From Patescibacteria group bacterium (GTDB lineage: Bacteria; Patescibacteriota; Patescibacteriia; PEXW01): a DNA stretch of 64,000 nucleotides. Position numbers and translations under genes: made by a program. Under the pieces are notes generated by a model that was not told the DNA's origin, made no database searches, and worked only from the letters and a program-made list of their open reading frames with translations. The stretch is taken from contig JBBTVB010000002.1 of the NCBI GenBank assembly GCA_038063455.1, forward strand, positions 65,296 to 129,295, read 5' to 3'. Each line of letters opens with the position of its first letter. The stretch's first letter is position 1. Below are positions 2,696-63,339 of this stretch, piece by piece.

Positions 2696-2705
2696 TTGGA
2701 TTAGT

Positions 2706-2867
2706 CACCCGTTCGATTCCCCCAATCCGGGGCCCCCACGAAGTTGGCGCGCAACGCAGTGAGCACGACTTCGTGGGGTTAAGCGAGGCTTCGCATCGAG
2801 AGCGGAGCTTTTACCGGTCACGGCAAAACGCAGCTCGACGTGCGAAACGAGCTGGTAGCGCCAAGGG
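2706..2867 (-). repeat. tandem repeat copy 1 (162 nt; period 221 nt)
   Basis: 161/162 identical to 2927..3088 (only A2813 vs G3034); ends with the last 15 nt of tRNA-Glu (CCCTTGGCGCTACCA, minus strand). Confidence 0.95.
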
Positions 2868-2930
2868 CCTGCCTGCCGGCAGGCAGGGAATCGCCCCTGA
2901 CGGGGCCGGGGTGCTACGCATGCTCGCACC
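2853..2930 (-). pseudogene. tRNA-Glu remnant: 3' acceptor/CCA end retained, body replaced by three GC hairpins
   Basis: occupies the position of tRNA-Glu in the other repeat unit; keeps CCCTTGGCGCTACCA and a GGGAATCG-CCCC T-arm trace; 20-nt palindrome CCTGCCTGCCGGCAGGCAGG inserted at the acceptor/T-stem junction; no cloverleaf. Confidence 0.55.
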
Positions 2931-2933
2931 CGT
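2906..2933. repeat. G-first hairpin motif copy A (CCGGGGTGCT-N8-TCGCACCCGT)
   Basis: shares both arms with 17670..17698 and 18353..18380. Confidence 0.7.
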
Positions 2934-3088
2934 TCGATTCCCCCAATCCGGGGCCCCCACGAAGTTGGCGCGCAACGCAGTGAGCACGACTTCGTGGGGT
3001 TAAGCGAGGCTTCGCATCGAGAGCGGAGCTTTTGCCGGTCACGGCAAAACGCAGCTCGACGTGCGAAACGAGCTGGTAGCGCCAAGGG
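2927..3088 (-). repeat. tandem repeat copy 2 (162 nt), overlapping the 3' end of tRNA-Glu
   Basis: see copy 1; contains an 11-bp stem CCCCACGAAGT/ACTTCGTGGGG, TTTGCCG-GTCA-CGGCAAA, and a GTTCGATTCCCC segment that is an inverted copy of the tRNA-Glu T-arm. Confidence 0.95.
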
Positions 3089-3148
3089 GAATCGAACCCC
3101 TATTTCTTGGATGAGAACCAAGTGTCCTAACCGGTAGACGATGGCGCC
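3074..3148 (-). tRNA. tRNA-Glu (anticodon CUC), CCA encoded
   Basis: manual cloverleaf: GGCGCCA/TGGCGCT acceptor (G1-U72), GTCT/GGAC D-stem, CTTGG-TTCTCAT-CCAAG anticodon arm, AGGGG-TTCGATT-CCCCT T-arm, ACCA. Confidence 0.9.
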
Positions 3149-3243
3149 CTAATATCTAAAAACGTGCAAATATGAGCCTACCTAATTACTCCCTAAGTAT
3201 CAAGAGTTACAACTTCGCAGCTAATTTAACAATTTTTGCAGAA

Positions 3244-17547: not shown

Positions 17548-17623
17548 TGGTGGGTCCGCTGGGAATCGAACCCAGAACCTTGGGCTTAAAAGGCCCCTGC
17601 TCTACCAATTGAGCTACGAACCC
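17548..17623 (-). tRNA. tRNA-Lys (anticodon UUU), CCA encoded
   Basis: manual cloverleaf: GGGTTCG/CGGACCC acceptor, GCTC-AATTGGTA-GAGC D-arm, loop CTTTTAA, CTGGG-TTCGATT-CCCAG T-arm. Confidence 0.92.
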
Positions 17624-17659: not shown

Positions 17660-17728
17660 CCCTGCTCTTCCGGGGTGCTCCCGATGGGTCGCACCCGTCC
17701 CTATGGGACCCAATTGAGCTACGAACCC
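17660..17728 (-). pseudogene. 5' fragment of tRNA-Lys (nt 1 to about 30) with a 41-nt hairpin insertion in the D-loop
   Basis: 19 nt identical to the tRNA-Lys 5' end (GGGTTCGTAGCTCAATTGG), then the insert, then GAGCAGGG; no anticodon or T arm. Confidence 0.7.
17670..17698. repeat. G-first hairpin motif copy B (CCGGGGTGCTCCCGATGGGTCGCACCCGT)
   Basis: 27/28 identical to 18353..18380; nested stems GGGTGC/GCACCC and CCC/GGG. Confidence 0.85.
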
Positions 17729-17774
17729 ATAACGGGCCTATTGTGCACTAATTACGCTAAATATACAAGCTCTC

Positions 17775-18562: not shown

Positions 18563-18594
18563 GCACCACCTTTTCTGCTGCCAGAAAAGGCGGT
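18563..18594. repeat. degenerate member of the CCCNGCACCACCTT palindrome family
   Basis: GCACCACCTTTTCTG-CTGC-CAGAAAAGGCGGT; 12 nt (GCACCACCTTTT) identical to the 41819 hairpin arm. Confidence 0.55.
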
Positions 18595-41284: not shown

Positions 41285-41701
41285 TTACGAAGGTTTCTTG
41301 GCGCCGTAGAGACTGCGACCTTGCTTGCGATTAGCCACGCCCTGGGTGTCGTACACGCCGCGGACAATGTGGTAGCGTACACCCGGCAAGTCTTTCACGC
41401 GGCCACCGCGGATGAGCACGATGGAGTGTTCCTGCAAGTTGTGGCCAATACCTGGGATGTAGGCCGTCACTTCCATGCCATTCGACAAACGGACACGCGC
41501 GATCTTGCGGAGGGCGGAGTTTGGCTTTTTCGGGGTGGTGGTCGTCACTTTTACGCACACGCCACGCTTAAACGGACTGCCGGCCGGGAGTTCGTGGCGG
41601 TAGCGCTTGAGCGCGTTAAGCACCGGCTGGAGGGCCGGGGTCTTGGACTTGCGGCGGGCGTTGAAGCGCCCTTTGCGTACGAGTTGATTAACGGTAGGCA
41701 T
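41285..41701 (-). CDS. rpsL: 30S ribosomal protein S12
   Basis: [37 protein letters not shown]. Confidence 0.97.
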
Positions 41702-41789
41702 TTTTAGGTAGAAGCAAATGACCGCGGTGGTGGCTGGCCCCGCTGTCGAATGAAACGTTGGGGAAAAACACGAGGTTCAAGCAGGTGAG

Positions 41790-41818
41790 AGCGTACCATG
41801 CTCCCCCGTCCACGTCAA
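41790..41818 (-). promoter_or_regulatory. candidate sigma70-like promoter of the str operon (TTGACG-N17-TACGCT)
   Basis: hexamers and 17-nt spacing read on the minus strand, about 85 nt upstream of rpsL. Confidence 0.4.
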
Positions 41819-41852
41819 CCCCGCACCACCTTTTCAAAAAGGTGGTGCGGGG
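41819..41852. repeat. palindromic hairpin CCCCGCACCACCTTTT-CA-AAAAGGTGGTGCGGGG
   Basis: perfect 16-nt arms; directly downstream of the M50 protease stop; family member. Confidence 0.9.
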
Positions 41853-41863
41853 TCAAGGCTGGG

Positions 41864-42493
41864 CTAGGGGGTAATCAACCGAAAAGCAAAACTCTCAACC
41901 GCTTGGAAAATTGGCCCGAGCACCGGCTGGCCAAACACGATAATAAACAGCAAGATGACAAAACCATAGCGCTGGATGGTTTCCACCAGCCCGACATATT
42001 GCTGGGGCAGCAACGTCAAGAGCTTGGAGCCGTCCAGCGGCGGGATCGGCAAGAGGTTGAAGAGCATAAGCACGACATTGAATTGCACCAAAAGTGCCAA
42101 AAACGTGAGCAAAAGGTTATCGACGGGCAAGTTGGCATACTGCAGCACTAGCCGCATGATAATCCCGAAAAAAACCAAGCCGAGCAGGTTGGATGCTGGG
42201 CCAGCTAGGGAAACGAGCGACGGCCCCCAACGCTTGGCTTTGAGGTTGTAGGGGTTAAACGGCACCGGCTTGCCCCAACCAAACCCAAACAGGACGAGGA
42301 CGAGAAACCCCATAGGGTCCACGTGCGAGAGCGGGTTAAGTGTGACGCGCCCTTCGAGGTCAGCGGTACTATCCCCTTGCAGTTTGGCCACCAGGGCGTG
42401 GCTAAATTCGTGGATGGTGATAGCGACGATGATTGCGGCTACCCAGGCCAGGGCAACCGCAGGATCGGAGAAAAGAATGTTGAGGAAGTTCAT
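41864..42493 (-). CDS. site-2 protease family (M50) zinc metalloprotease
   Basis: HEFSHALVA zinc motif in a TM helix, NLLPIPPLDG motif; start at ATG 42493 because the track N-terminus is translated hairpin. Confidence 0.85.
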   Translation of the reverse strand: MNFLNILFSDPAVALAWVAAIIVAITIHEFSHALVAKLQGDSTADLEGRVTLNPLSHVDPMGFLVLVLFGFGWGKPVPFNPYNLKAKRWGPSLVSLAGPASNLLGLVFFGIIMRLVLQYANLPVDNLLLTFLALLVQFNVVLMLFNLLPIPPLDGSKLLTLLPQQYVGLVETIQRYGFVILLFIIVFGQPVLGPIFQAVESFAFRLITP

Positions 42494-42502
42494 AAGAGGC
42501 TT

Positions 42503-42540
42503 GCCCAGCACCACTTTTTGAAAATAAAGTGGTGCTGGGC
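42503..42540. repeat. palindromic hairpin GCCCAGCACCACTT-N10-AAGTGGTGCTGGGC
   Basis: perfect 14-bp stem; 11 nt (CCCAGCACCAC) identical to the GIY-YIG inverted repeat. Confidence 0.9.
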
Positions 42541-42598
42541 TTGTCAGGATGAAGGGATTCTGGTAGGCTACGAACCACTGCACTCCCAACTATACCGT

Positions 42599-42778
42599 AT
42601 GGCCCGAACCTGCACCATCTGTGGACGCGGCAGCCTGAAAGGCAACCAGCGCAGCCACTCTAAAATCGCTACCATCAAACGGCAGCACGTCAACATTCAA
42701 ACCGTCTTCAAGGGCGGCGTGCGGGTTGATGCGTGCACGTCCTGCATCCGCACCGTAGCGCACCAAGCCAGTAAGTAG
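42599..42778 (+). CDS. rpmB: 50S ribosomal protein L28 (59 aa)
   Basis: MARTCTICGRGSLKGNQRSHSKIATIKRQHVNIQ...CTSCIR; internal ATG of track ORF 42323..42778. Confidence 0.9.
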   Translation: MARTCTICGRGSLKGNQRSHSKIATIKRQHVNIQTVFKGGVRVDACTSCIRTVAHQASK

Positions 42779-47336: not shown

Positions 47337-47388
47337 ACTTTGTGTGTCTGGGTCGGGGTGTGGCGCAGTTGGTAGCGCGCTTGCATGG

Positions 47389-47420
47389 CCCCGCACCATT
47401 CGCTCCGCTTAGGTGCGGGG
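47389..47420. repeat. hairpin H1 CCCCGCACC-N14-GGTGCGGGG inside the anticodon loop of the outer tRNA-Pro copy
   Basis: perfect 9-bp stem; arms identical to H2 and to the first 9 nt of the 41819 hairpin. Confidence 0.9.
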
Positions 47421-47450
47421 TATAGGTGCAAGATTCTCATCTCGCTGGGT

Positions 47451-47523
47451 CGGGGTATAGCGCAGTTGGTAGCGCGCTTGCATGGGGTGCAAGAGGCCGC
47501 CGGTTCAAGTCCGGCTACCCCGA
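47451..47523 (+). tRNA. tRNA-Pro (anticodon GGG); CCA not encoded (ACCC)
   Basis: manual cloverleaf: CGGGGTA/TACCCCG, GCGC-AGTTGGTA-GCGC, CTTGC-ATGGGGT-GCAAG, GCCGG-TTCAAGT-CCGGC; embedded in an 18-bp leader/trailer helix (47440-47457 with 47516-47533). Confidence 0.9.
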
Positions 47524-47550
47524 CCCAGCGAGAGGCAGTGTTCAAGCCTG

Positions 47551-47582
47551 CCCCGCACCCGAGCGTAGTGAGTGGTGCGGGG
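47551..47582. repeat. hairpin H2 CCCCGCACC-N14-GGTGCGGGG between the T-arm and 3' acceptor strand of the outer copy
   Basis: perfect 9-bp stem; its loop is 9/14 identical to the reverse complement of the H1 loop. Confidence 0.9.
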
Positions 47583-47679
47583 GTCCCGCCACCCCGACCC
47601 AGACATGGAAGGCAATGCCAAAAAAATTACACGACTGCTTGTCGCTTACAGGATAAATACTCTACAGTAGGAACAGCCT

Positions 47680-57962: not shown

Positions 57963-58911
57963 CTAGATCTTGTGTTATAACCCCGTCCTTGGTCACGCGC
58001 ACCACGCGGCAATCTTGATTTGGGCGGGTAACCAGACCAAGCATGAAGCGGGCTTCTTTCCAGGGAACATCGGCGCCCAGCCCACCAACCGCAGTGAAAG
58101 GCGTGTGCGTGCTGACGTTGTCCGAGATAACAATGGAGCGACCATCAGGCGTAGGGAAGTGCACCGCAACTTGCAGCGGATAATTTGGATCAACACCACC
58201 GATCGGGCTTGGGGCGGGCTCAGGAGATATTCCCTTCCACGGTGCACCGCCTACGTTGCAACTCACCTTTCCACCCGTGGTGTCTTGCAAGCTCAAGTCA
58301 ACGAGCGTGACTTTTGGGTCGAACGTAAACGTTTCTGCTATTGTATCACCTTTATGGCGTCCACCGCTGCCGTAGCCGTCACTGCTAAAAATATGATCCA
58401 TGGTGGTGTCCACGCCCGCAAACCCATTGTCTTGAGGCATCGGCCAATTTTCAGACTCCAGCCAATTAAACGGGAAGCAATCCCCCTTGCACTGCACGCG
58501 GTCGGCAAACAGGTAGTACTGGCTGCGGTTGGGCCAATGGTTATTTTCAAATGTCGCCCCCGTGCTGCAGCTGGCAAATAGCCCAAAGCCGCCGCTCGGA
58601 GTGCTTACCGTACACGTCGACCCCGGCGTAATTGCTGCACACTCGGCATTACTCGAGCACTTTGTATCGTCATTGGTAAGCGTGCAATACCCAGCAACCG
58701 CGCCGCCTGCGGTATTCTCTTGCGCAAGACGTAAGCGGGACATCAGCAGCGTGGCTTCACGAGAAAGGACGCTGTCATCATTACTGCGCCGGTAGTTAGC
58801 CAGGATAAGCCCGAGCAATGCAATAAAAATCCCAGCCGAAACAAGAACTTCAAGCAACGAGAAGCCCTGCGGAGGTTTTTTCATTTGCCTAGTCAAAGAT
58901 GCAGTCGGCAT
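57943..58911 (-). CDS. FimT/FimU (GspH)-like minor pilin, Cys-rich (322 aa)
   Basis: PQG|FSLLEVLVSAGIF; LLMSRLRLAQE; paralogue of the next gene. Confidence 0.75.
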   Translation of the reverse strand: MPTASLTRQMKKPPQGFSLLEVLVSAGIFIALLGLILANYRRSNDDSVLSREATLLMSRLRLAQENTAGGAVAGYCTLTNDDTKCSSNAECAAITPGSTCTVSTPSGGFGLFASCSTGATFENNHWPNRSQYYLFADRVQCKGDCFPFNWLESENWPMPQDNGFAGVDTTMDHIFSSDGYGSGGRHKGDTIAETFTFDPKVTLVDLSLQDTTGGKVSCNVGGAPWKGISPEPAPSPIGGVDPNYPLQVAVHFPTPDGRSIVISDNVSTHTPFTAVGGLGADVPWKEARFMLGLVTRPNQDCRVVRVTKDGVITQDLDADCQF

Positions 58912-60367
58912 CGGTCCGTTGAGAAACCACGCCAGCGCGGGTCATGGTCACGACGTGGCAATCGCTATTTGGACGTTTGACGAGCCCGAGCATTACATCG
59001 GCACTCACCCAGGCATTATTTGGATCCGGATCCGAACCAGCACCAGGTGGATTAATAGCAATATTATCGGTGAGCATCACGCTCCGTCCGTCGGGTGGTA
59101 TAAAACGAATTGCGACTTGCAACGGATAGTTATTTGGGACAAGTGAATTGCCAGCGGTACTGACCGTTTTGCCACGCCATGGAGTACCACCGCCGGGATT
59201 ATCGCCTGATGTACATCGAAAAATTTTACCTGTTCCTGTAGCCCCAGGCACTGCATTTTGCGAAACCAGCTGCAAATCTTTTACCACAACTTTAGGGTCA
59301 AGTACGTACCGTTCTTGTGCTGTATCCCCTTTTTGGCCTTTGGACCCGCTCGGTGCGCCCCACAAGAATGTAAAGGCACTTACAATTCCATCTGACCCAA
59401 TTGCGGTGTCATCAAATGCGCCAAGTGCGGCCGTTTGCCGAGGCGGAAAGCACAATGTCGGCGCGCTTGCACTGGCGGATCCACAGGTGCGACGTTCTGC
59501 AAACAGTCCATACATTGACGCTCCATTTGTGAGAAATGGATATTCGGTTTCATCATATCCACCAGGCTTGGTATACCCTCCGGGGCATGCAAGCGAAATA
59601 ACAAAACCACCAGTCGGCGTTTCATTGCCAGTTGGGCATACCCCATTCAAGCCGGTCCCACCTGGGCAGCAATTTCTTGCAATATTATTGTTCGGATCAC
59701 AAGAGTATCTGCACGTACCGCCATTTGCACAGTCGCCATCAACTGAACATTGCCGATACGGATCATTGCTGCATACTAATGATGTTGTGGCATTAACGCA
59801 GCTATTTCCTGGGCCACATTCGGTTCCAAGTGGGCACGCTTTGAGTAGATCATTGCTGCAAACTCTGGGGCCATTCCCTGTACAACTTGTGCCCGTGAAA
59901 TGATAGCAATACCCAAACGTCTTGCCCGAATTTGCTTCTTCTTGCGCAAAGCGGATTCGCGACATGAGCAAACTTGTCTCTTTGTTGAGCGCGCTATCAT
60001 CACCGCCGCGGTAGTAATTTGCCAACACAAAGGCGAGTAGGCCAACCGAAATACCTACGGCAATGATAACCTCTATGAGTGTAAACCCAGCACCACCTTG
60101 CTTATTACTCTTCTTTGATGAAGACAACGTGAGTCGTTTTTTCAACTCACGTAAAGCATTGCCATTGTGTTTAAGATTATGCTCACGCATACGTGCTAAG
60201 GATTCCTCATGAAATGCCTCGTAATACTGCAATTGCCATGGTCTGTAACGTTTAGTTGAAAAACTTTTGCCGTCGTTGTGCTCTTTAACCCTACGCTTGA
60301 GGTCCTTAGTCGAGCCTATGTATGATTCATTACTACTAAGACTTCTTAAATAATACACGTAGTACAT
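58889..60367 (-). CDS. continuous ORF: GIY-YIG nuclease domain read through into a FimT/FimU-like, Cys-rich minor pilin
   Basis: from ATG 60367 there is no stop until 58889; GIY-YIG (YVY...YIG...R...E) then KQGGAG|FTLIEVIIAVG; the pilin part could also start at TTG 60127 (leader MSSSKKSNKQGGAG). Confidence 0.7.
   Translation of the reverse strand: MYYVYYLRSLSSNESYIGSTKDLKRRVKEHNDGKSFSTKRYRPWQLQYYEAFHEESLARMREHNLKHNGNALRELKKRLTLSSSKKSNKQGGAGFTLIEVIIAVGISVGLLAFVLANYYRGGDDSALNKETSLLMSRIRFAQEEANSGKTFGYCYHFTGTSCTGNGPRVCSNDLLKACPLGTECGPGNSCVNATTSLVCSNDPYRQCSVDGDCANGGTCRYSCDPNNNIARNCCPGGTGLNGVCPTGNETPTGGFVISLACPGGYTKPGGYDETEYPFLTNGASMYGLFAERRTCGSASASAPTLCFPPRQTAALGAFDDTAIGSDGIVSAFTFLWGAPSGSKGQKGDTAQERYVLDPKVVVKDLQLVSQNAVPGATGTGKIFRCTSGDNPGGGTPWRGKTVSTAGNSLVPNNYPLQVAIRFIPPDGRSVMLTDNIAINPPGAGSDPDPNNAWVSADVMLGLVKRPNSDCHVVTMTRAGVVSQRTDADCIFD
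60085..60101. repeat. inverted repeat arm ACCCAGCACCACCTTGC (encodes the prepilin leader end QGGAG|F on the minus strand)
   Basis: perfect reverse complement of 60368..60384. Confidence 0.95.
60131..60367 (-). other. GIY-YIG (COG2827/YhbQ-like URI) nuclease module
   Basis: MYYVYYLRSLSSNESYIGSTKDLKRRVKEHNDGKSFSTKRYRPWQLQYYEAFHEESLARMREHNLK matches the small stand-alone GIY-YIG family pattern. Confidence 0.85.
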
Positions 60368-60384
60368 GCAAGGTGGTGCTGGGT
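60368..60384. repeat. inverted repeat arm GCAAGGTGGTGCTGGGT
   Basis: perfect reverse complement of 60085..60101; lies between the pilD stop and the GIY-YIG ATG. Confidence 0.95.
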
Positions 60385-60395
60385 GAAGCCTTTTT

Positions 60396-61196
60396 TCATA
60401 GTCCAATAAGCTGTTTATACCAGTCTACCACGCTGGGCCCAAAAATGAACGCCAAAATGCCGGCTGCCCCAAGGAACACGCCAAATGGTAGCTGACTCTT
60501 GAGCTTGACCTTCCCGCGCACTAGCAAGGTTGCCGCCCATACGCTGCCGCTGAGATACGAGGCAAAAAGCGCCAAGATGACCCCCGGGAAACCCAGATAG
60601 GCACCCAGCACAGCGCCAATGCGGATATCCCCGCTCCCCACCCACTTGCCGCGGGAAAAAAACCACTGCAGCCAAAACCAGGCCGCGCCAATGGCTATAG
60701 CTAGCAGCAGGCTAAGCAGTTGCGAATTTGCGTTTGACGATGCGCCCGTAAAGATACGAATAAGTTGTAGTGCAGTCAGCACGCCCAGGGTCGGCAGGCT
60801 AATGCTATCTGGCACAATTTTGTGGCGGCCGTCGATGAAGGCCAGTACCAGCAGGCTGCACGCACCAATGGCACCAATAAAAAAGTCCATATCTAGCCCG
60901 TGCTGCAGGTACAAGAGTACAAAAATAGCAGCGGTAAGCGTCTCAACAATAATGTACTGCGGGCTCAACGGTTTATGGCAGTACCGGCAGCGTCCCCGAA
61001 AAAAAAGGTAGCTAAAAATCGGCACGAGATCTAAAGGTTGTAACACTTTTTTACAGTGCATGCAGCGGGAGCGCTGCTTGGGCCCTAAAAACTTGCGACC
61101 TTTGGGCAACCGAAAAATGACAACATTTAAAAAGCTGCCGATGATGGCGCCGAGCAAGAAGAGGAAAATTGCGATGAATGGGTTTAAAAAATTCAT
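60396..61196 (-). CDS. pilD: prepilin peptidase / N-methyltransferase (A24 family)
   Basis: N-terminal CxxC...CxxC (CMHCKK...CRYCHK), multiple TM helices, DGR and GSGD aspartate motifs. Confidence 0.9.
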   Translation of the reverse strand: MNFLNPFIAIFLFLLGAIIGSFLNVVIFRLPKGRKFLGPKQRSRCMHCKKVLQPLDLVPIFSYLFFRGRCRYCHKPLSPQYIIVETLTAAIFVLLYLQHGLDMDFFIGAIGACSLLVLAFIDGRHKIVPDSISLPTLGVLTALQLIRIFTGASSNANSQLLSLLLAIAIGAAWFWLQWFFSRGKWVGSGDIRIGAVLGAYLGFPGVILALFASYLSGSVWAATLLVRGKVKLKSQLPFGVFLGAAGILAFIFGPSVVDWYKQLIGL

Positions 61197-61224
61197 GTAC
61201 GTTTTCTGCTATACCCCACCTACG

Positions 61225-61310
61225 CCTCCCCTCCGAGAGGGGAGGATATTTATTCATTTCCCCTCCTCTCGGAGGAGGGGTGTCCACCGTAGCTTCCAGC
61301 GAAGGTGGAC
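61225..61310. repeat. three consecutive GC hairpins
   Basis: CCTCCCCTC-CGA-GAGGGGAGG, CCCCTCCTC-TCG-GAGGAGGGG, GTCCACC-N15-GGTGGAC in the spacer between a pilin-like gene and pilD. Confidence 0.85.
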
Positions 61311-61758: not shown

Positions 61759-63339
61759 CTACTCTTGTTTATCAAGGAACTCTACCCGATCGCGCAATTT
61801 CTGCAGCTGTTGCAAAAAGACTGGGTTAGGCACATCACCCGCGGTCGGGTTGGCAGGATAGCGCGCCAAGCCTTCCAAGAGGACTGCCCGGGCCTCGGCA
61901 GTCTTCTTTTGCTTGGCATACACGTCCGAAAAAAGAAGATAAACTTCCAGAGAAAAATACGGGTCGCGGTCCAAGGTCTCTCGGTACAAACGCTCGGCAT
62001 CGGCATTGTGGCCTTGGGAAAAAGCGACTCGGGCGCCAATTTGACGGGCAAACGCGTCGTGCCGGTTCCAATCGTAGGCCAGACGTGCCTGCTTAGCAGC
62101 TTCATCCAGTTCTTTACTCTGATAATTATTTAGCCACAAGGATTCGGCATAGGCGCGGCGTTGCTCGGGGTCGGGGTCGAATCGCAAAGAAAACGCATAC
62201 AAACTTGCGGCTTTTTTTGTATCCCCAGAGAGCGCCATGCGTTCGGCCGCGGCAAACCGGTTGAGGCCCAGCCCCATAACAAGTGCTTGTGCAGCAATAA
62301 GGGTACTCAAACTTATACTTACTACGCGGAAATACCTGCGGGTGTCCCCACCGCGGATTTCTACAGTCGGCAAGGGTGCAGCGCACAGGCCCAGCAAAAC
62401 CCACCAACCAAACCAGACACCCGGGTATTGCCACACATTCGCTACCCAGCAGAGCGCTTGCGAAACGCCCACTGCAGCAAGCATGACAATTTTTGTACGA
62501 CGAGAACGTCCCCGCAGGGCCAGCAGTGTTGTGGCAAGGATGGCAATGAGCATGAGTGTGCCAAAAATACCAAAGCTACTCACTATATCTAACACTGTAC
62601 TCGGGGCACGGTCTGCTAGCACACTCGGGACCAGCGCGCTCACAAGATATTCATACGTGGCATTGTCAGCTCCCACTCCAAATCCTGCATTCGACGTGGC
62701 CATGCTGGCAAAAGCTTGGGTCAGTACCGCCGTCTGCTGCCAATCCTGCTGAATCCGGATATAAAAACTTGGCAATACAAAAGGGGCAATGCACACCACA
62801 ACCGCAAACAAAAGTATACAATTTTTCCAAAACGCTTGACGCTTTAGCAACATGAACCCCGCAACCAGAGATGGCACAGCCAACGCCGCTAAGGCCACTG
62901 GGTCTTTTGCCACGGCCGGCACCCAAGAAATGGGCAGACTCGTGTGCGTTGCAAGCATGGCCCACCCTACCCAAAGAACGCCAAGGAGAAGCATGCCAAC
63001 CTGCAACACTTGCCGATGATCTTGGGCCAGGGTGCGCACGGCCATAAAAACCACGAGGCCAATAGCCACCACCAGCCACCCCAGGCTGGCGGCGTACACA
63101 TTCCCGGCAAACAGCGTGCTTACGAGCGTACCTGCGAGAGCAAGCCAGGCCCAAAATTCTGGCTCACGCCAGGAGAAGGGCTTTTTTTGCAAGTAGTGCA
63201 AAGCCCAGGTTAACGGCAACACTAAAAAACCCACCACAACGTGTGGCCACTTGTTGGTAAAATCTGGCACGCCGCTTAACACGGCGGCACCGATGAGTAA
63301 AAACCCCACAATCGCCCAGTAACGAAGATACGTCATCAT
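61759..63339 (-). CDS. polytopic membrane protein with C-terminal TPR repeats, O-antigen ligase/pilin O-oligosaccharyltransferase-like
   Basis: about 11 TM helices followed by TPR-like repeats (GDTKKAASLYAFSLRFDP..., HNADAERLYRETLDRDP...); located between two pilin genes. Confidence 0.55.
   Translation of the reverse strand: MMTYLRYWAIVGFLLIGAAVLSGVPDFTNKWPHVVVGFLVLPLTWALHYLQKKPFSWREPEFWAWLALAGTLVSTLFAGNVYAASLGWLVVAIGLVVFMAVRTLAQDHRQVLQVGMLLLGVLWVGWAMLATHTSLPISWVPAVAKDPVALAALAVPSLVAGFMLLKRQAFWKNCILLFAVVVCIAPFVLPSFYIRIQQDWQQTAVLTQAFASMATSNAGFGVGADNATYEYLVSALVPSVLADRAPSTVLDIVSSFGIFGTLMLIAILATTLLALRGRSRRTKIVMLAAVGVSQALCWVANVWQYPGVWFGWWVLLGLCAAPLPTVEIRGGDTRRYFRVVSISLSTLIAAQALVMGLGLNRFAAAERMALSGDTKKAASLYAFSLRFDPDPEQRRAYAESLWLNNYQSKELDEAAKQARLAYDWNRHDAFARQIGARVAFSQGHNADAERLYRETLDRDPYFSLEVYLLFSDVYAKQKKTAEARAVLLEGLARYPANPTAGDVPNPVFLQQLQKLRDRVEFLDKQE

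Follow-up and report, generated by a model that had tools for sequence, protein, structure and literature searches.

Among the closest described analogs of the system considered here are the Ssn proteins, single-domain GIY-YIG proteins of about 94 amino acids (aa; cd10448), whose binding to a cognate hairpin repeat (NTS/SRM) is restricted to single-stranded DNA (ssDNA), which they cut next to the repeat (Chenal et al. 2025, PMC11893778). Hundreds of repeat copies exist, among them those on both sides of the ssn gene, and only 2% of NTS lie within genes; SsnA modulates natural transformation, and an analogy to insertion sequences (IS) and REP/RAYT was drawn by the authors (PMC11893778). Bacteria of the candidate phyla radiation (CPR) are not mentioned in that paper. 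A comparable arrangement is present in a Patescibacteria group bacterium, in a stretch of 64,000 nucleotides (assembly GCA_038063455.1, contig JBBTVB010000002.1, positions 65,296 to 129,295 of the forward strand), referred to below as the window. It contains a family of palindromic hairpins and a gene of a GIY-YIG nuclease enclosed by arms of the same family.

Miniature inverted-repeat transposable elements (MITEs), Correia elements (Neisseria) and Rickettsia palindromic elements are short sequences with terminal inverted repeats and a target-site duplication, and IS608-type elements choose a tetranucleotide target. GIY-YIG open reading frames (ORFs) were found sparsely in CPR rRNA insertions, in non-intron sequences unlike either intron class, and RNase III-type intervening sequences were suggested for the short insertions (Tsurumaki et al. 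2024, PMC11270868, with Brown et al. 2015 cited there). Inverted repeats, hairpins and palindromes are not mentioned in the latter work.

The hairpins and the cassette of the window are best described as one palindromic mobile family, the nuclease of which most likely targets the hairpin into which its own arms fold, nicks its foot and starts copying or insertion, and which has landed in frame in a prepilin gene. The probability of this reading is estimated at roughly 0.65.

Hairpin family and GIY-YIG cassette

The original prediction listed dispersed hairpins with the arm sequence of the GIY-YIG inverted repeat, and all of them are present. The hairpin at 41818–41853 has a perfect stem of 17 bp with the 2-nt loop CA, and that at 42503–42540 a perfect stem of 15 bp with a loop of 8 nt. 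The former belongs to solo element A (41815..41856; core CCCCGCACCACCTTTT-CA-AAAAGGTGGTGCGGGG at 41819–41852), framed by the 4-bp direct repeat TCAA (41815–41818 and 41853–41856). Element A is located between the stop of an M50-family peptidase gene (41864) and the region upstream of rpsL; its right repeat, on the minus strand, recreates TTGACG, a −35-like hexamer. Solo element B (42500..42543; core CCCAGCACCACTTT-ttgaaaat-AAAGTGGTGCTGGG at 42504–42539) is framed by the 4-bp direct repeat CTTG (42500–42503 and 42540–42543) and separates the M50 start (ATG 42493, minus strand) from rpmB (42602, plus strand). Two short members (47389..47420 and 47551..47582) have the same 9-bp termini (CCCCGCACC/GGTGCGGGG) and unrelated 14-nt loops. 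The hairpin at 18563..18594 is a weak and doubtful relative. It has a perfect 9-bp stem (CCTTTTCTG/CAGAAAAGG) and GCACCACCTTTT in common with element A, lacks the CCCNGC terminus, folds weakly (z −2.3) and is at best a decayed copy. No strand is assigned to any of these palindromes.

The termini of the four family hairpins follow CCC[A/C]GCACC...GGTGC[T/G]GGG. The family pattern (CCNGCACC, at most 60 nt, GGTGCNGG) was compared with 200 dinucleotide-preserving shuffles. It is matched 4 times in the window versus a shuffle mean of 0.035 (maximum 1); chance is therefore excluded, and the over-representation of the motif proposed earlier holds at the scale of the window. Perfect hairpins with a stem of at least 14 bp number 4 versus 0.01 in shuffles. 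Folding of elements A and B as ssDNA gives −21.3 and −18.7 kcal/mol (z −7.2 and −6.1); the G+C content of the window is 53.5%. The heptamer GCACCAC occurs 34 times versus 12 expected, and this excess is located mainly in in-frame coding sequence, not in hairpins. Three tRNAs, and nothing else, were recognised by an Rfam search of the window, and no additional family copies were found in 16 kb more of the same contig. The window is 99.98–100% identical to CAYIMS010000001.1 (GCA_964364675.1) and to a Logan contig of run ERR3858126; both long hairpins are present in the GCA_964364675.1 copy (99.98% identical).

The inner part of the arm (GCACCACCTTT / AAAGGTGGTGC, e.g. 41823–41848) is similar to an anti-Shine-Dalgarno/Shine-Dalgarno pair (CACCTCCTT / AAGGAGGTG), which could be a coincidence or reflect a translational role. 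Interpretation of the arms as a mimic of the tRNA 3' end (7 nt plus ACCA) was dropped: many variants do not contain it, and proximity to tRNA genes is not general.

The ORF-bearing member, or GIY-YIG cassette (60082..60387, minus strand), is organised as TTCA-CCCAGCACCACCTTGC ATG...GIY-YIG...GCAAGGTGGTGCTGGG-TTTA. Its arms are ACCCAGCACCACCTTGC at 60085–60101 and the exact complement at 60368–60384, and the flanking repeats in coding-strand reading are TTCA (60387–60384) and TTTA (60085–60082). Two claims made from the sequence were borne out here: the nuclease ORF, bounded by ACCCAGCACCACCTTGC and its complement, sits in the ‘loop’ of a family member, and the cassette arms match the 41818 arm at all but 1 of 14 positions and have CCCAGCACCAC in common with the 42503 arm. 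The sole gene between the arms encodes a single-domain GIY-YIG nuclease of about 83 aa with intact GIY-YIG motifs.

This domain opens a 492-aa fusion ORF (58889..60367, minus strand). The GIY-YIG part (Pfam PF01541, E 3.5e-14, residues 1–83 approximately) is followed by a linker, then by ...KQGGAG-FTLIEV, a type IV prepilin cleavage motif (G|F), and then by the pilin body. In the NCBI annotation the fusion is one gene, a ‘GIY-YIG nuclease family protein’, and its start codon is now provided by the cassette. A relic of the original pilin start (60385..60399, minus strand) is retained as ATG AAA AAA GGC TTC (MKKGF), continued by Thr (ACC) into the left arm, and is out of frame with the pilin today. 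Its ATG (60399) overlaps the pilD stop (ATGA), which suggests former pilD–pilin translational coupling. The prepilin peptidase gene pilD (60396..61196, minus strand; A24_N_bact and Peptidase_A24) lies directly upstream of the fusion gene, and PilD is the enzyme expected to perform the cut at G|F. The order of the pilus operon is PilB, PilT, PilC, pilins, PilD, fusion, minor pilins; three further pilin-like genes of the window are free of the element, and their leaders are short.

Just 5' of pilD there are overlapping palindromes (61222–61283; CCTCCCCTC-CGA-GAGGGGAGG and CCCCTCCTC-TCG-GAGGAGGGG), the sequence of which is unrelated to the hairpin family. Many database proteins of 235–263 aa contain both PF01541 and PF07963 (P0014, P0169, P0180, P0207).

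Relatives, target duplications and insertion sites

A single query retrieved 106 relatives of the 83-aa domain, and a profile at least 6955, most of them being 81–95 aa long. They belong overwhelmingly to CPR bacteria, and also to Margulisbacteria, Omnitrophota, Cloacimonadota and WOR-1; a first search of plasmid sequences for relatives of the nuclease gave no match. The best profile match (P0107, 184 bits) has 191 aa, twice the normal length, and is possibly a tandem double GIY-YIG protein.

The survey covered 80 loci on one-genome-per-species contigs (49–72% protein identity), i.e., 81 cassettes including that of the window. Loci were scanned with a profile from alignment A2 (A1 was too diverse), and the best inverted repeat was searched between 120 nt 5' of the start and 200 nt 3' of the match. 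Same-family arms enclose about 54 of the 81 cassettes, extending from 0–30 nt before the ATG to shortly past the ORF. The expectation that other GIY-YIG ORFs would be bracketed by the same arms was thus confirmed, in compensated variants: ACCCAGCACCAC, ACCCCGCACCAC, ACCCCGCACCTTTT, ACCCCTTACCAC, ATCCCCCCTCAC, ACCCCCACACC and CCGAGCACC are each matched on the opposite arm. Alignment of 44 distinct cassettes from the outer end shows 96.4% of cells paired, a percentage inflated by the choice of the arms as inverted repeats, and changes on both sides in 13 of 14 pairs. The covariation score is 0.59 versus 0.16 shuffled and at most 0.12 with the partner slid; judged from these alignments, the compensated variants at homologous positions are real despite the selection of arms. 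Only about 2 of about 570 internal stem cells are G·U pairs, and a DNA-level constraint on both strands therefore fits better than a purely RNA helix. ORF-less copies with locus-specific arm variants adjoin cassettes in other genomes, and in some relatives, such as L008, the ORF is situated between two complete hairpins.

Target duplications were counted in 72 copies (cassettes and ORF-less hairpins), the core being defined as CCC...GGG with 4 bases on each side. Exact 4/4 direct repeats are found in 26 of the 72 copies; permuting left and right flanks 2000 times gives 8.2 (maximum 18). The duplicated tetramers are diverse (TTTA, TTGA, TTCA, CAAA, TAAA), with TT[T/G]A as the preferred target. 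The outermost ‘pair’ of the stem varies (A-T, G-C or none) because the last base of one repeat faces the first base of the other.

In the nearest relatives from the metagenome collection (S12 79–81% identical) the M50 gene is kept upstream of rpsL, and the hairpins are absent from the M50–rpsL site, where the intergenic regions contain only promoter-like TTGAC boxes; the −35-like TTGACG adjacent to element A is found upstream of rpsL in relatives as well. The strict family pattern has 0 matches in 80 S12 loci (324 kb). No terminator-like sites were found in 41600–42750, the stems being followed by CAAGGC and TGTCAG and not by a T-tract. The hairpins are consequently not terminators conserved in relatives; such conservation was what the original prediction had named as an argument against the link. 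Orthologs of the pilin (33–45% identity) start with MRIRKG-FTLIE or MKKG-FTLIE (G|F; e.g. MKKGFTLIE in P0212), and neither nuclease nor cassette is present in the orthologs examined. Owing to the 4-bp repeats, the absence at orthologous M50–rpsL sites and the missing T-tract, the hairpins are interpreted at the sequence level as insertions of a MITE-like element, the ORF cassette being its gene-bearing form. Assignment of the flanks of element A (cCGTCAA...TCAAGG) to Ssn-repeat flanks (CGTCAT...ATCYRG) was rejected, as they consist of the TCAA duplication and host TTGACG.

Two other hairpins were seen at M50 loci of relatives. That of L092 (1189–1208; ATTCCTGC-tttc-GCAGGAAT) is close to the Neisseria NTS core, and that of L150 (1703–1737; ACCCCGTTAGAAAG-agcggga-CTTTCTAACGGGGT) has an ACCCCG foot as in the family. 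They are hints of further repeat families in CPR genomes.

Pilin-type loci account for 35 of the 81 cassettes. All 35 have the orientation of the type IV pilin-like gene at whose N-terminus they lie, the site being the prepilin cleavage motif. K-S-G-A-G|F is encoded by the right arm AAAGTGGTGCTGGGTTT, and T-L-[IV]-E comes next. The target is GGG-TTTA-CCC (Gly-Phe-Thr), and insertion regenerates it at both junctions, which accounts for tandem arrays of a cassette and a solo hairpin (L003, L007, L009, L013, L023, L033). The nuclease ORF is open into the pilin, with no stop, in 27 of the 35 loci. The distance from the nuclease to the cleavage site ranges from 84 to 130 codons, so that the in-frame reading must be kept by selection.

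Structured RNA genes are another group of targets. Cassettes are found inside 23S rRNA (9 loci), 16S rRNA (3 loci) and RNase P RNA (4 loci), always on the strand of the host gene. In the 23S rRNA of L081 the cassette is inserted in the hairpin that follows ACAAG (model position about 583), and other 23S cases have the same flanks; by comparison with the E. coli sequence, this site is presumably helix 25, a classical site of intervening sequences. Cassettes in the RNase P RNA gene lie just upstream of the GGAAAGUCC motif, their right arm being directly adjacent to the conserved AGGAAAGTCC motif; we take this site to be helix P3. Further insertion sites include −35-like TTGA|CA boxes and a Rossmann GAGF|IGS motif. 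The latter insertion (L040, protein P0028) interrupts an epimerase-like gene within its GxGxxG dinucleotide-binding motif (GAGF|IGSN). Codons of this host gene, GGTGCGGGG-TTCA, resemble the right end of the element plus its target, which suggests a preference for targets similar to the element's own ends.

The arm is followed by a right flank (AT)GACGG or TGACGG in 16S (L052, L059) and 23S (L063, L064, L078) cassettes; presumably it is native rRNA sequence. On the other strand TGACGG reads CCGTCA, the conserved 5' flank of Ssn repeats. This flank could reflect a target preference or a coincidence. A TGAC adjoining the right arm is a recurrent feature of 16S, 23S and promoter-like sites.

The M50-family peptidase gene between elements A and B (41864..42493, minus strand) is a host gene located outside the element. 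Its exact flanking by two hairpins, as originally claimed, is correct to within 9–10 nt if translation starts at ATG 42493; it does not apply to the NCBI gene call of 239 aa, which reads through the upstream hairpin. No database record was found for the M50 product that begins at ATG 42493, nor for the 526-aa protein encoded at 61759–63339. The other flanking claim stood unchanged: an intact tRNA-Pro(GGG) (47450..47527, plus strand) is nested between both short hairpins, 29 nt downstream of one and 23 nt upstream of the other, and inside the remnants of an outer tRNA-Pro. The 5' part of the outer copy, which is treated as a relic, stops at 47388, and its 3' end is located at about 47583–47602. 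The hairpin at 47389–47420 together with TATA forms a 36-nt insertion between positions 35 and 36, in the anticodon loop of the disrupted outer gene. This is the unusual site reported for group I introns in Patescibacteria tRNAs (PMC13011429). A spliced tRNA intron was nevertheless rejected as an explanation of this hairpin, which is too short for group I and is not recognised by Rfam, the intact inner tRNA being present.

The nested locus (47356–47605) consists of the 5' part up to position 35, the hairpin insertion and the remaining anticodon arm. The inner tRNA-Pro(GGG), complete and extended at its acceptor stem by flanks of its own (CTCGCTGG/CCAGCGAG), comes next. On its 3' side are a degenerate piece resembling a T-arm, then the second hairpin and lastly the 3' end of the outer copy (GTCCCGCCACCCCGACCCAG). 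Proximity to tRNA genes, implied earlier as a property of the family, did not survive the survey: it is seen in 1 of the 80 loci.

Palindromes of other sequence were observed at two further tRNA genes of the window. At 2700–3150 (minus strand), 3' of tRNA-Glu (3074–3148), there is a tandem duplication of about 220 nt beginning with the tRNA 3' end (CCCTTGGCGCTACCA). Its units contain the identical hairpin CCCCACGAAGT-23 nt-ACTTCGTGGGG at 2734–2778 and 2955–2999, and a perfect 20-nt palindrome CCTGCCTGCCGGCAGGCAGG (2868–2887) breaks a T-arm-like fragment. A second palindromic family tied to tRNA fragments may be represented here. At 17680–17745 (minus strand) a partial copy of the 5' half of tRNA-Lys (GGGTTCGTAGCTCAATTGG), about 60 nt upstream of the real tRNA-Lys (17548–17623), is followed by the hairpin GGGTGCGA...GCACCCCGG, which is similar to one after tRNA-Glu.

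Proposed mechanism and alternative explanations

By analogy with the Ssn proteins, the nuclease could recognise the hairpin extruded by its own arms in ssDNA and nick it at the foot. Such a nick would start copying and insertion both of the cassette and of the ORF-less copies, and symmetric nicks four bases apart on the two strands would produce the 4-bp duplication. The ORF seems to rely on transcription of its host, to judge from its co-orientation with the host gene and from the start codon, which adjoins the left arm. Where the host is an RNA gene, the stem probably has a second effect, namely that the insertion is tolerated much as an intervening sequence is. In pilin genes the nuclease would constitute a leader of about 95 residues ending at G|F, which could be cut by the prepilin peptidase PilD encoded directly upstream. 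Cut in this way, the pilin would be normal, and the nuclease would be set free in the cytoplasm, next to the pilus/DNA-uptake machinery. We know of no described leaders of about 95 residues with a folded domain.

Several observations weigh against a mobile family driven by its own nuclease. About 80 kb of the genome was searched, and the copy number there is low. Besides the inflation of the pairing percentage by the choice of arms, no target duplication is found among the copies examined in rRNA, RNase P RNA and both tRNA-Pro hairpins, and a second route or strong selection must therefore be assumed in structured-RNA genes. A nuclease of 83 aa cannot perform strand transfer alone and therefore does not by itself account for a 4-bp duplication; no enzyme was identified for the joining step. 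The pairing of nuclease and hairpin is deduced from sequence and from the Ssn analogy. B. subtilis YazA (UPF0213), which is not hairpin-associated, scores 52.5 bits with the CPR profile, as high as Ssn proteins. Finally, the published SRM pattern HGTCWYN(0-2)YYVSBRHN(0-5)WNVSBRGN(0-2)RNCYNB has 0 matches on both strands of the window, the same pattern being matched 8 times in the N. gonorrhoeae ssnA locus and 4 times in the Azospirillum locus; on this comparison the repeat of the window falls outside the published definition of an SRM.

The ORF could instead encode a homing-type endonuclease which invaded the loop of an independent palindromic repeat, the arms being homing half-sites. The ORF is always located exactly between the arms and separates the half-sites as in classical homing; ORF-less hairpins are more numerous than cassettes and often stand beside them; the arms covary with the nuclease lineage; and some relatives, such as L008, with the ORF between two complete hairpins, reproduce the NTS-ssnA-NTS layout. 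However, cassettes are accompanied by the same 4-bp duplications as solo copies, and they must therefore have entered new sites as complete units (pilin, epimerase, promoter-like TTGACA), not only hairpins that were already there. The same is suggested by pilin orthologs with plain leaders, which point to insertion at hairpin-free sites and speak against homing as the sole route. Moreover, homology arms of 15–20 bp are short for repair-mediated homing, and no other candidate for a mobilising enzyme is seen between or beside the arms. Homing into a pre-existing repeat is for these reasons considered unlikely. An even smaller probability is attached to a function of the stems mainly at the RNA level, whereby RNase III would cut the stem, freeing the nuclease mRNA and leaving the host RNA functional, and solo hairpins would be processing or stability elements. 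The host-strand orientation of every cassette in 23S rRNA, 16S rRNA and RNase P RNA, the position of the L081 insertion at helix 25 and the co-orientation of all pilin cassettes agree with such a role, as do the non-intron GIY-YIG rRNA insertions and the RNase III-type suggestion for short ones (Tsurumaki 2024, PMC11270868). This role explains why insertions are tolerated, but not a dispersed family with target duplications. The stems are nearly all Watson–Crick paired, which is not typical of RNA helices; elements A and B, found in a divergent intergenic region and behind a stop codon, have no T-tracts, and as palindromes they would fold in transcripts of either strand; and the hairpins are absent in relatives.

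It is highly improbable, and largely refuted already, that the hairpins are ordinary terminators, attenuators or operators of the host which resemble the GIY-YIG repeats, for example because GGTGGTGC encodes Gly-Gly-Ala. The location of elements A and B at gene boundaries beside −35-like hexamers and the frequency of GCACCAC in coding sequence of this genome would fit a regulatory role. Against it stand the missing T-tract terminators, the absence from orthologous intergenic regions, the 4-bp direct repeats and the occurrence of the same termini around GIY-YIG ORFs across CPR bacteria in unrelated contexts, chance matches being expected at 0.035. A mobile family comprising hairpins and cassette remains the favoured explanation.

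A broader proposal can be advanced only tentatively and is rather doubtful at present: the family would be a new class of transposable element, the sole protein of which is a GIY-YIG nuclease of about 85 aa, moving as an almost perfect palindrome with 4-bp duplications and with a specialisation on the Gly-Phe-Thr codons of prepilin genes. In it the nuclease would serve as a cleavable leader of about 95 residues, in an ‘intein-like’ manner that relies on a signal peptidase in place of splicing.

Target-site duplications together with empty sites provide direct sequence evidence, absent from the Ssn work, for the insertion of hairpins and cassette as mobile units. The partnership of hairpin repeats with GIY-YIG proteins, described in 2025 in Proteobacteria only, is thereby extended to CPR bacteria. 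A common explanation is thereby offered for the non-intron GIY-YIG insertions in CPR rRNA, for palindromes in RNase P RNA genes of relatives and in tRNA genes (only the tRNA-Pro of the window), and for the many annotated ‘GIY-YIG nuclease’ proteins of 240–500 aa, which are in fact fusions of nuclease and prepilin. Provided that processing of the fusion follows the prediction, a selfish gene would have found a new hiding place in the gene of an essential surface structure; a single-strand-specific nuclease would then be placed at the DNA-uptake apparatus, on which CPR bacteria with reduced genomes are thought to depend. Pairs of nucleases and hairpins with longer stems could widen the toolbox of programmable ssDNA cutters.

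Comparison with known systems

The original prediction assumed a REP/RAYT-like logic. The link between hairpins and nuclease is supported by the enrichment, the arms and the duplications, while strict REP/RAYT identity is not: no HUH enzyme is encoded, and an Ssn analog has been published (PMC11893778). Likeness to REP/RAYT and IS200/IS605 elements consists in a dispersed palindrome, in a single-copy nuclease gene flanked by the same palindromes and in ssDNA hairpin recognition, which in the CPR family is presumed by analogy. The differences are the GIY-YIG fold in place of HUH (Pfam detects only GIY-YIG in the window gene) and the target duplications of the CPR copies, which REP and IS200/IS605 do not have. 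Since no HUH transposase is present, a MITE with an autonomous partner and the Ssn/NTS system are closer analogies.

Shared terminal inverted repeats, a fixed 4-bp duplication and presence or absence at orthologous sites are properties of MITEs that are found in the CPR family. ORF-less and gene-bearing copies have common ends, and in-frame insertions in protein genes as well as insertions in RNA genes are tolerated. In contrast to MITEs, the partner is a GIY-YIG nuclease of about 83 aa and not a DDE transposase, no recognised transposase being found between the arms, where the nuclease is the sole ORF; the element itself is a nearly perfect palindrome with a tiny loop.

Relatives of the cassette are the non-intron GIY-YIG insertions of CPR 16S and 23S rRNA, including those in helix 25, where the ORF occupies the loop of a terminal stem; the window copies differ in lying outside rRNA. 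Homing endonucleases of the I-TevI type have in common with the cassette the GIY-YIG catalytic domain and the position of a selfish gene at a highly conserved coding motif. The CPR nuclease differs by having no DNA-binding domain and no associated ribozyme (no Rfam match). The NCBIfam model of group I intron endonucleases gives 23.7 bits versus a cutoff of 56, and all NCBIfam matches are sub-threshold.

By sequence likeness the nuclease is placed in the Slx1/UPF0213/Ssn neighbourhood. The best match among solved structures (Protein Data Bank, PDB) is UPF0213 BH0048, then SLX1, these being the only ones. The CPR profile gives 32–54 bits with Ssn proteins (Azospirillum 54, S. meliloti 48, N. gonorrhoeae 46). 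N. gonorrhoeae SsnA (NTS arrays) and the homologs of Azospirillum, S. meliloti and Novosphingobium were recovered with their own flanking hairpins; no flanking hairpin repeat was found at the B. subtilis YazA (UPF0213) locus.

The CPR system resembles Ssn in combining a small single-domain GIY-YIG protein with a hairpin-forming repeat that both brackets its gene and is dispersed in the genome. The size class of about 90–100 aa is approached by stand-alone CPR relatives (81–95 aa), the domain of the window being fused to a pilin. In both systems the repeat variant covaries with the nuclease lineage, and the foot of the CPR stem (CCCCGC...GCGGGG) resembles the Azospirillum repeat ATCCCCGC...GCGGGGAT. 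Both are connected with type IV pili or DNA uptake, as Ssn modulates transformation and the CPR gene is part of a pilus operon. A GIY-YIG domain together with a pilin or prepilin was not found in the literature searched. Apparently undescribed are also a gene within a split hairpin, the target-site duplications, insertion at the prepilin Gly-Phe-Thr codons with an in-frame leader, and cassettes in 23S helix 25, 16S rRNA and RNase P RNA.

The concept of a hairpin repeat with a GIY-YIG protein has already been published (Chenal 2025, PMC11893778), and the window system is a distinct CPR variant of it. The CPR protein has no C-terminal REKxLKKWxRxWK...NPxW motif and is equidistant from UPF0213. 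Its stems have 15–17 bp versus 7–9 bp in Ssn repeats, and they are flanked by variable 4-bp duplications in place of the fixed asymmetric CGTC.../...CYRG. The CPR gene is located within one split hairpin, whereas ssn stands between complete hairpins (a layout which does occur in L008), and CPR copies are found inside coding and RNA genes.

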